From assembly GCA_949065595.1 (NCBI GenBank), contig CARSXK010000002.1, positions 29,387 through 93,386 on the forward strand: DNA of 64,000 bases. The letters run 5' to 3'. This DNA is from an uncultured Bacilli bacterium (GTDB taxonomy: Bacteria > Bacillota_I > Bacilli_A > RF39 > UBA660). Below the pieces are notes generated by a model, which was given only the letters and a program-made list of their open reading frames with translations, made no database searches and was not told the origin of the DNA. Below, one piece after another: positions 32,052 through 32,484 of this stretch (positions are counted from its first letter, which is position 1; each line of letters starts with the position of its first letter). A program made the translations under genes and the position numbers.

Positions 32052-32484
32052 ATTTTAATATCATCCAAGATGACATAGATCTAAAACCCTGAACGCGCTA
32101 TCGCTTGTCTGAATGCTGTTTTAATACCATTCAAGATGACATAGATCTAAACTACTATAAAGCCATTATCTTATAAGTAAATGTTTTAATACCATTCAAG
32201 ATGACATATATCTAAAACATGCCGTGGTGTGTAAGATATGGAACATCAGTTTTAATACCATTCAAGATGACATAGATCTAAAACTCTCTCATCATTACTA
32301 CGAAATTTGGACCTAGTTTTAATACCATTCAAGATGACATAGATCTAAAACGTGCCAATATTGAAAGATGAAAATTATAGTCGTTTTAATACCATTCAAG
32401 ATGACATAGATCTAAAACTTATCATCAATTCTAATAGCTGTATCCTCTGTTTTAATACCATTCAAGATGACATAGATCTAAAAC
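32052..32484 (-). CRISPR. type II-A CRISPR array, 7 repeats / 6 spacers
   Basis: 36-nt repeat GTTTTAATACCATTCAAGATGACATAGATCTAAAAC (+ strand). Its reverse complement GTTTTAGATCTATGTCATCTTGAATGGTATTAAAAC is S. pyogenes-like. Repeat starts: 32052 (3 mismatches), 32118 (one A missing), 32183 (G>T), 32249, 32316, 32383, 32449. Spacers are 30-31 nt. Confidence 0.95.

Follow-up and report, generated by a model that had tools for sequence, protein, structure and literature searches.

How a bacterium can carry, on one chromosome, a CRISPR spacer together with an almost exact copy of the sequence that it matches is the question raised by this locus. In the window, by which we mean the whole stretch of 64,000 nucleotides analysed here, spacer S1 (32088-32117; + strand, CCTGAACGCGCTATCGCTTGTCTGAATGCT) and positions 25857-25886 of a resident prophage (ACTGAACG) lie about 6 kb apart on the same chromosome and are identical at 29 of 30 bases, the only difference being C at 32088 against A at 25857. 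The computed alignment reproduced the match given in the first-pass annotation, in its extent, its coordinates and its sequences, and no additional mismatch appeared. No match with three or fewer mismatches arose by chance in 100 dinucleotide-preserving shuffles of the window, and with its single mismatch S1 fits the definition of a self-targeting spacer of Roux et al. 2019 (zero to one mismatch, same replicon).

Which end of the guide carries the mismatch depends on the strand from which the array is transcribed. The array (32052-32484, - strand) comprises seven 36-nt repeats, which read GTTTTAGATCTATGTCATCTTGAATGGTATTAAAAC on the - strand, and six spacers of about 30 nt. On the same strand the order is cas9-cas1-cas2-csn2, then a leader of ~85 nt, then the array, and the leader region (32485-32598, -) contains a promoter-like site, ATGAAA-18-TATAAT (32598-32569), reading into the array. 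The terminal repeat R0 (32052-32087), which adjoins S1 and is the repeat furthest from csn2, departs from the other repeats at positions 23, 27 and 36 only, leaving its first 22 nt intact as had been claimed, and a degenerate repeat is likewise found at the csn2-distal end of the related loci L001, L003 and L028. The order of the cas genes and leader, the distal position of the degenerate R0 and, decisively, the pairing of the repeat with the anti-repeat of a + strand tracrRNA gene indicate that the crRNAs are - strand transcripts and that S1 (crRNA sense AGCATTCAGACAAGCGATAGCGCGTTCAGG) is the leader-distal and oldest spacer, as the earlier annotation had proposed. The neighbouring repeats are also altered: R1 (32118-32152) has lost one T of its 5' GTTTT run and is 35 nt long, and R2 (32183-32218) has one substitution, C-to-A at position 10 in crRNA sense. 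As a result, S2 and S3 also have imperfect handles, and the whole trailer half of the array is decaying.

The genes preceding the array form a single operon of a type II-A CRISPR-Cas system, as assigned from family models. All four lie on the - strand: csn2 (32570-33244; NCBIfam equivalog above cut-off and Pfam Cas_Csn2), cas2 (33241-33576) and cas1 (33551-34420), both of type II and both NCBIfam equivalogs above cut-off, and an intact cas9 (34410-38408; NCBIfam Cas9 equivalog), whose likely start is MKNYNIGLDIG at 38408, the gene callers extending it to 38456. The Cas9 translation retains IGLDIGTTSVGW (RuvC-I), EIDHIIPR...DNKALV (HNH) and HHAHDAYL (RuvC-III); it is SpCas9-like up to residue ~1120 and its PAM-interacting domain is divergent. 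Upstream of cas9 and on the + strand lies a tracrRNA gene (38444-38552) with an anti-repeat, GTTAAAATAAAGG and hairpins, preceded by a near-consensus promoter, TTGACA-18-TATTAT (38408-38437), and ending in an intrinsic terminator (38529-38544); no Rfam family matched it at threshold. Its anti-repeat (38444-38480) is complementary to the - strand repeat, with which it forms a duplex of -38.5 kcal/mol containing an SpCas9-like bulge, as compared to -31.4 kcal/mol for R0. As R0 still pairs at this energy, the S1 guide could be made, and the translation and R0 together confirm the earlier statement that the RuvC and HNH catalytic motifs and the tracr-pairing handle are intact. We found no literature on the array repeat or on the PAM of its Cas9.

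The target is located within an inovirus-like prophage (20613-29216, - strand), an 8,585-bp unit with a 19-nt direct repeat, TCTATATTATGTTAACTAA, at either end (20613-20631 and 29198-29216). It encodes a Rep_1 rolling-circle initiator (20636-21709; Pfam Rep_1, 51.3 bits against a cut-off of 33.2), a Zot-like ATPase (21901-22746; PHROG 197, E 2e-8, Walker A GLPGAGKT, with no Pfam match above threshold), a 608-aa adsorption-like ORF (23642-25468, -) and an RstR-like HTH repressor (27248-27472, +) divergent from the phage genes, in addition to a run of short membrane-protein genes, a 92-aa protein and roughly ten small ORFs without annotation. The Rep_1 and Zot-like genes, the size of the element (in the 5-15 kb range of inovirus genomes), its short membrane-protein genes and its one large adsorption-type gene bear out the view that the resident prophage containing the target is of filamentous type. 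The stretch separating the 92-aa gene from the repressor (27135-27248) contains repeated TACAACA/TGTTGTA inverted motifs, resembling the operators of a lysogeny switch.

None of the phage ORFs contains an integrase domain by Pfam, PHROGs or NCBIfam, and at the left junction there is a dif-like 28-mer, ACTTTCTATAATCTATATTATGTTAACT (20602-20629, +). The reconstructed attB shares 24 of its 28 positions with the Bacillus subtilis dif given in PMC3025954, and gene orientation converges at ~20 kb. The host encodes a XerD-type tyrosine recombinase (41188-42123, -; XerD equivalog), and SpoIIM and GPR protease genes adjoin the prophage. A metagenomic Logan contig of 8,615 nt (L012) is a circularly permuted copy of the phage with a 30-nt terminal overlap, and its attP junction is exactly that predicted from the two prophage ends; the permutation, overlap and junction together mean that a circular form of the phage exists. 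We infer from gene content and junctions that the prophage is a filamentous phage of the CTXphi type that depends on Xer and has a low-GC spore-former as its host. CTXphi of Vibrio is an Xer-dependent integrative filamentous phage (IMEX), and the likeness extends to the lack of a phage integrase, an att core made of the dif central region plus one arm, a divergent RstR-like repressor, a rolling-circle Rep, a Zot-like gene and a host XerD nearby, as judged here from the genes. Unlike CTXphi, the element has a Gram-positive host, a Rep of the Rep_1 family and no toxin cargo that we could see, and its Xer dependence is a prediction.

Searches for relatives of this phage gave nothing meaningful among GenBank phages (BLAST of the whole prophage) and nothing in IMG/VR (Zot-like protein), and distant homologues of the 608-aa protein (P0002-6, on L020-22) offered neither spacer matches nor a conserved intergenic region. 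One Logan contig (SRR14619883_22; L044/L019/L035), equivalent to window positions 20001-28273 and beyond, is 99.99% identical up to 28273; from there, still within the accessory region of the phage, its sequence differs and encodes a ParA-like ATPase together with six small ORFs, which could reflect an assembly join, a tandem insertion or a variant element. Pfam labels on identical contigs mark a T2SSE-type ATPase (10179-11675, -) and an N_methyl prepilin-like protein (12244-12855, +) some 8 kb away from the prophage, and a pilus or pseudopilus of this kind could be the receptor of the inovirus. The interval between the prophage and the array, outside the att repeats, holds a 251-aa multi-pass membrane protein without a family and a NERD-domain nuclease-related protein (29225-30614, -).

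Given the - strand reading of the crRNA, the mismatch falls where it had been placed, on the PAM-adjacent 3' base of the guide: at 25857 the guide has G where the target strand has A (rG opposite dA, guide position 1), the protospacer (25857-25886) being read on the - strand. The 3' flank of the protospacer on that strand is AGAGGATGGTGA, and the flank reported before, AGAGGATGGT, is correct. The protospacer is intergenic, lying between a terminator-like hairpin with a T-run (25895-25910, -), which follows an 85-aa ORF and is just upstream in phage sense, and the AGAGGA-N10-ATG of a 61-aa phage ORF (ATG at 25840-25838, -), and the outer stem of the hairpin reaches the PAM-distal end of the protospacer. 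The putative PAM region, read from the sequence as AGAGGATGG (25848-25856, -), overlaps the Shine-Dalgarno AGAGGA of the 61-aa ORF. As the PAM flank doubles as a ribosome-binding site, its freedom to mutate would be limited. Neither this overlap nor spacer S5 as a second match to the inovirus, the dif/Xer integration or the circular phage had featured in the first-pass annotation.

S1 is accompanied by other matches to the same phage. Spacer S5 (32352-32382, -) agrees at 25 of 31 positions with a diverged protospacer within the 608-aa ORF (25294-25324, +), compared to at most 23 for shuffled spacers, and its mismatches are synonymous or conservative (IPVLKDENYS against VPILKDENYS), as expected of a spacer derived from a related phage. 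A metagenome scan with a degenerate form of the repeat returned seven related arrays. The related locus L028 is syntenic, with an undisrupted Cas9 that is 80% identical, and its oldest spacer matches the 92-aa ORF at 28 of 30 positions (26903-26935, +, including a GGG flank), both mismatches being PAM-distal and the flank reading GGGCGGT. The S5 and L028 matches together indicate that this Cas9 clade really does target this phage family. Spacer 13 of L027, a more distant related array, aligns with 29061-29090 at 21 of 30 positions with a 15-nt exact core, which is too weak to call and may reflect a diverged relative of the phage.

The two flanks, AGAGGAT for S1 and GGGCGGT for L028, share G at +2 and +5, and that of S1 has A at +3. 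G makes up only 10% of the phage + strand and 16.5% of its - strand, and G-rich flanks on such a background indicate a G-rich PAM. With two flanks, the data fit NGNNG or NGR, either of which S1 would satisfy, as well as NGG or NGGNG, which it would fail. The PAM-loop motif is LSNRIGRLSG in the L028 Cas9 and LSDRIGRLSG here, with RIGRLSG common to both; the equivalent of SpCas9 R1333 is presumably kept and that of R1335 replaced (DRIGR against DRKRY). Further searches through repeat scans and through Csn2 homologues and their contigs supplied L028 as the only new PAM-informative protospacer, the Logan contigs ending at the first repeat and so limiting the recovery of spacers. Exact scans of IMG/VR with the 28-mer core of S1, with S2-S6 and with the L028 spacer gave no matches, and BLAST against GenBank phages returned nothing meaningful, either for the array or for a pool of 60 spacers drawn from it and from nine related ones.

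The history of the mismatch was sought among relatives. The six-spacer array is identical in the window and in four other assemblies, S1 is also present at a contig end of L011/L018, and the protospacer allele and its flank are identical in every phage copy retrieved (at least seven samples besides the window). A single contig carries S1 together with the prophage in three assemblies (the window, L011/L018 and L017), and in GCA_949015795.1 the two are found on separate contigs. These copies are near-clonal, with no differences in the 6.4 kb of the cas locus and one in 8.3 kb of the phage region, so the fixed mismatch represents one stably co-inherited evolutionary event and not repeated selection or repeated evidence. 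Searches through the 85-aa, 608-aa, 92-aa and 262-aa proteins returned no phage allele with the matching base, no ancestral allele of either phage or spacer was found among the near-clonal public copies, and the retrieved assemblies contained no empty dif site. The comparison of prophage alleles at 25850-25857 that had been suggested earlier thus yielded an invariant allele, in near-clonal copies only.

Neither the four cas ORFs nor the tracrRNA gene is disrupted in the window or in three further assemblies. In GCA_949015795.1 (L004), at the equivalent of 37738, a TTG-to-TAG change splits cas9 into 239 and 1096 aa; as a stretch of 10 N is only 49 nt away, the change may be an assembly artefact, and we did not accept it as evidence of decay. 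The unchanged array was likewise set aside as a sign of inactivity, the assemblies being near-clonal. In a related lineage (L033, ENA ERZ13657790; Csn2 79% identical) cas1 is split into two ORFs and the gap between csn2 and a ZIP transporter is 239 nt, and the array appears to have been lost.

In light of these data, we lean, by somewhat more than an even chance, towards S1 being a relic of immunity that has been disarmed in cis by the seed mismatch, possibly with the help of a weak PAM; when cis escape and a non-licensing PAM are counted together, an explanation at the target itself becomes distinctly probable. S1 would be a genuine old type II-A spacer taken from the inovirus lineage that is now Xer/dif-integrated in the same chromosome. 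The S1 crRNA, once bound by Cas9, would base-pair with the + strand at 25857-25886, where the G-against-A transversion at position 1 would block or strongly weaken R-loop nucleation beside the PAM. The effect is probably strengthened by a PAM that is less than optimal (A at +3), by the location of S1 at the trailer end and by the degenerate repeat that supplies its handle, and cleavage of the chromosome would stay below a harmful level, allowing spacer and prophage to be inherited together. Cis escape gains support from the fact that the sole difference in 30 nt is the PAM-adjacent one while the phage varies by one base in 8.3 kb between samples. In the native II-A system of group B Streptococcus, a single transversion within positions 1-11 was enough to reduce or abolish immunity, and older spacers were less protective (PMC12216829). 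For SpCas9 in vitro, in contrast, one seed mismatch caused mild defects only (PMC8053117), so the position-1 mismatch alone may not fully protect the chromosome, and an inhibitor or low expression could contribute. We infer that the mismatch, with or without the PAM, prevents cleavage. Cis escape, an anti-CRISPR and a silent locus, the three explanations put forward in the first-pass annotation, are in our judgement the right set, and each still stands.

An anti-CRISPR, whether from the inovirus or from a different prophage beyond the window, would inhibit Cas9 and make the self-targeting guide harmless. An intact cas9 together with a near-perfect self-match is the signature by which AcrIIA genes are sought, and here cas9, the tracrRNA and the handle are all intact beside such a match. 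The roughly ten unannotated small ORFs of the phage offer candidates, among them a 53-aa orphan in the accessory region beside attR (28733-28894, +, the strand of the HTH repressor), whose single-sequence AlphaFold model is confident (pLDDT 91) and has three strands and a helix. This model found no match in the PDB (best E 0.5) and the protein matched no family; the model of a 75-aa ORF was too poor for a structure search (pLDDT 54), and within the 64 kb inspected no phage ORF matches an anti-CRISPR-linked family of Pfam, PHROGs or NCBIfam. Anti-CRISPRs, or co-resident donors of them, have been proposed for self-targeted inoviruses, although ten candidates from self-targeted Pseudomonas inoviruses had no such activity (Roux 2019; PMC6813254). 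The seed mismatch is also the simpler explanation, and overall we regard inhibition by an anti-CRISPR as unlikely. That the 8.6-kb inovirus itself encodes a new Cas9 inhibitor among its orphan ORFs, for instance the 53-aa protein by attR, is a little more doubtful still; if true, filamentous phages would thereby have yielded their first anti-CRISPR, from a very small search space, and the lysogen could retain both its intact II-A system and a near-perfect self-targeting guide.

The match would be equally without consequence if the CRISPR-Cas locus were silent or decaying and the guides of the array were not used. The three mutated repeats at the trailer end, the identity of the array in all five assemblies, the TAG in cas9 of one metagenome-assembled genome and the split cas1 and missing array of L033 can be read in this way. 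Against this, the window and three other assemblies have all four cas ORFs undamaged, as well as the tracrRNA gene with its terminator and a promoter close to consensus, and the L028 Cas9 is undisrupted at 80% identity; the identical arrays reflect near-clonality, and the stop codon lies 49 nt from a scaffold gap. A silent locus therefore seems improbable to us.

It is rather improbable, too, that AGAGG is simply not a licensing PAM, in which case the PAM would be NGG or NGGNG, the site would go unrecognised, and the A at +3 would reflect either a second escape change or imprecise spacer acquisition. The sole independent protospacer of the 80%-identical ortholog carries GGGCGG on a strand with 10% G, S1 has A at +3, and the R1335 equivalent is replaced while that of R1333 is kept, as we take the SpCas9 alignment to run. 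Acquisition in type II-A systems is PAM-dependent, as Heler reportedly showed in 2015, which argues that the flank should have been a PAM when S1 was acquired, and a non-licensing flank would need two changes within 4 nt next to 29 perfectly matching nucleotides. The G at +2 and +5 of both flanks (n=2) also fits NGNNG or NGR, which S1 satisfies.

Finally, co-option of the guide, by which non-cleaving Cas9 at the junction of terminator and ribosome-binding site would repress the phage structural operon (the one with the 608-aa adsorption-like gene) and stabilise lysogeny, agrees with the position of the protospacer but is highly improbable, as the guide pairs with the template strand, a weak orientation for Cas9 roadblocks (CRISPRi), the position-1 mismatch weakens binding as well and the phage already has its RstR-like repressor.

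Cas9 immunity against a filamentous phage of a Gram-positive host had been called unusual, and this is not supported by the survey of Roux et al. 2019 (Nat Microbiol; PMC6813254), which found 1,150 inovirus-matching spacers from three CRISPR types and eight subtypes, and 45 of 1,429 genomes with spacers (zero to one mismatch) against a resident inovirus. Self-targeting of a resident inovirus is thus already documented, and the case described here adds a well-resolved example and no new system or mechanism. It resembles those cases in having a spacer with at most one mismatch to a resident inovirus, and differs from them in its host, an uncultured low-GC spore-former, and in its SpCas9-like II-A system. 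It differs also in that the position of the mismatch, the PAM flank and the strand have been worked out here, and in that the phage is not among IMG/VR or GenBank phages.

Spacers of Listeria type II-A systems that match prophages are said to have led Rauch and colleagues, in 2017, to AcrIIA1-4. The present locus shares with Listeria an SpCas9-like II-A system, an intact cas9 and a spacer directed at a prophage of its own chromosome; the Listeria cases involve perfect matches, correct PAMs and tailed acr-bearing prophages, whereas the present match has a mismatch in the seed and its prophage lacks any recognisable acr. Phages under Cas9 pressure reportedly yield seed and PAM escape mutants (Deveau in 2008, Sun in 2013), and common to both situations is a single PAM-adjacent substitution that removes or, as here, would remove or weaken immunity. 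Unlike such mutants, the putative escaper here is a lysogen fixed in its host lineage.

Self-targeting guides signpost anti-CRISPR genes as well as the natural limits of Cas9 specificity, and this locus makes a compact test case, with an SpCas9-like enzyme and its tracrRNA, a target with one mismatch and a gene-poor 8.6-kb phage. If the mismatch explains the tolerance, S1 would be an ordinary relic of the arms race between host and phage. The locus also documents a Gram-positive dif-integrating filamentous phage that has been targeted repeatedly by the Cas9 arrays of two related gut lineages.
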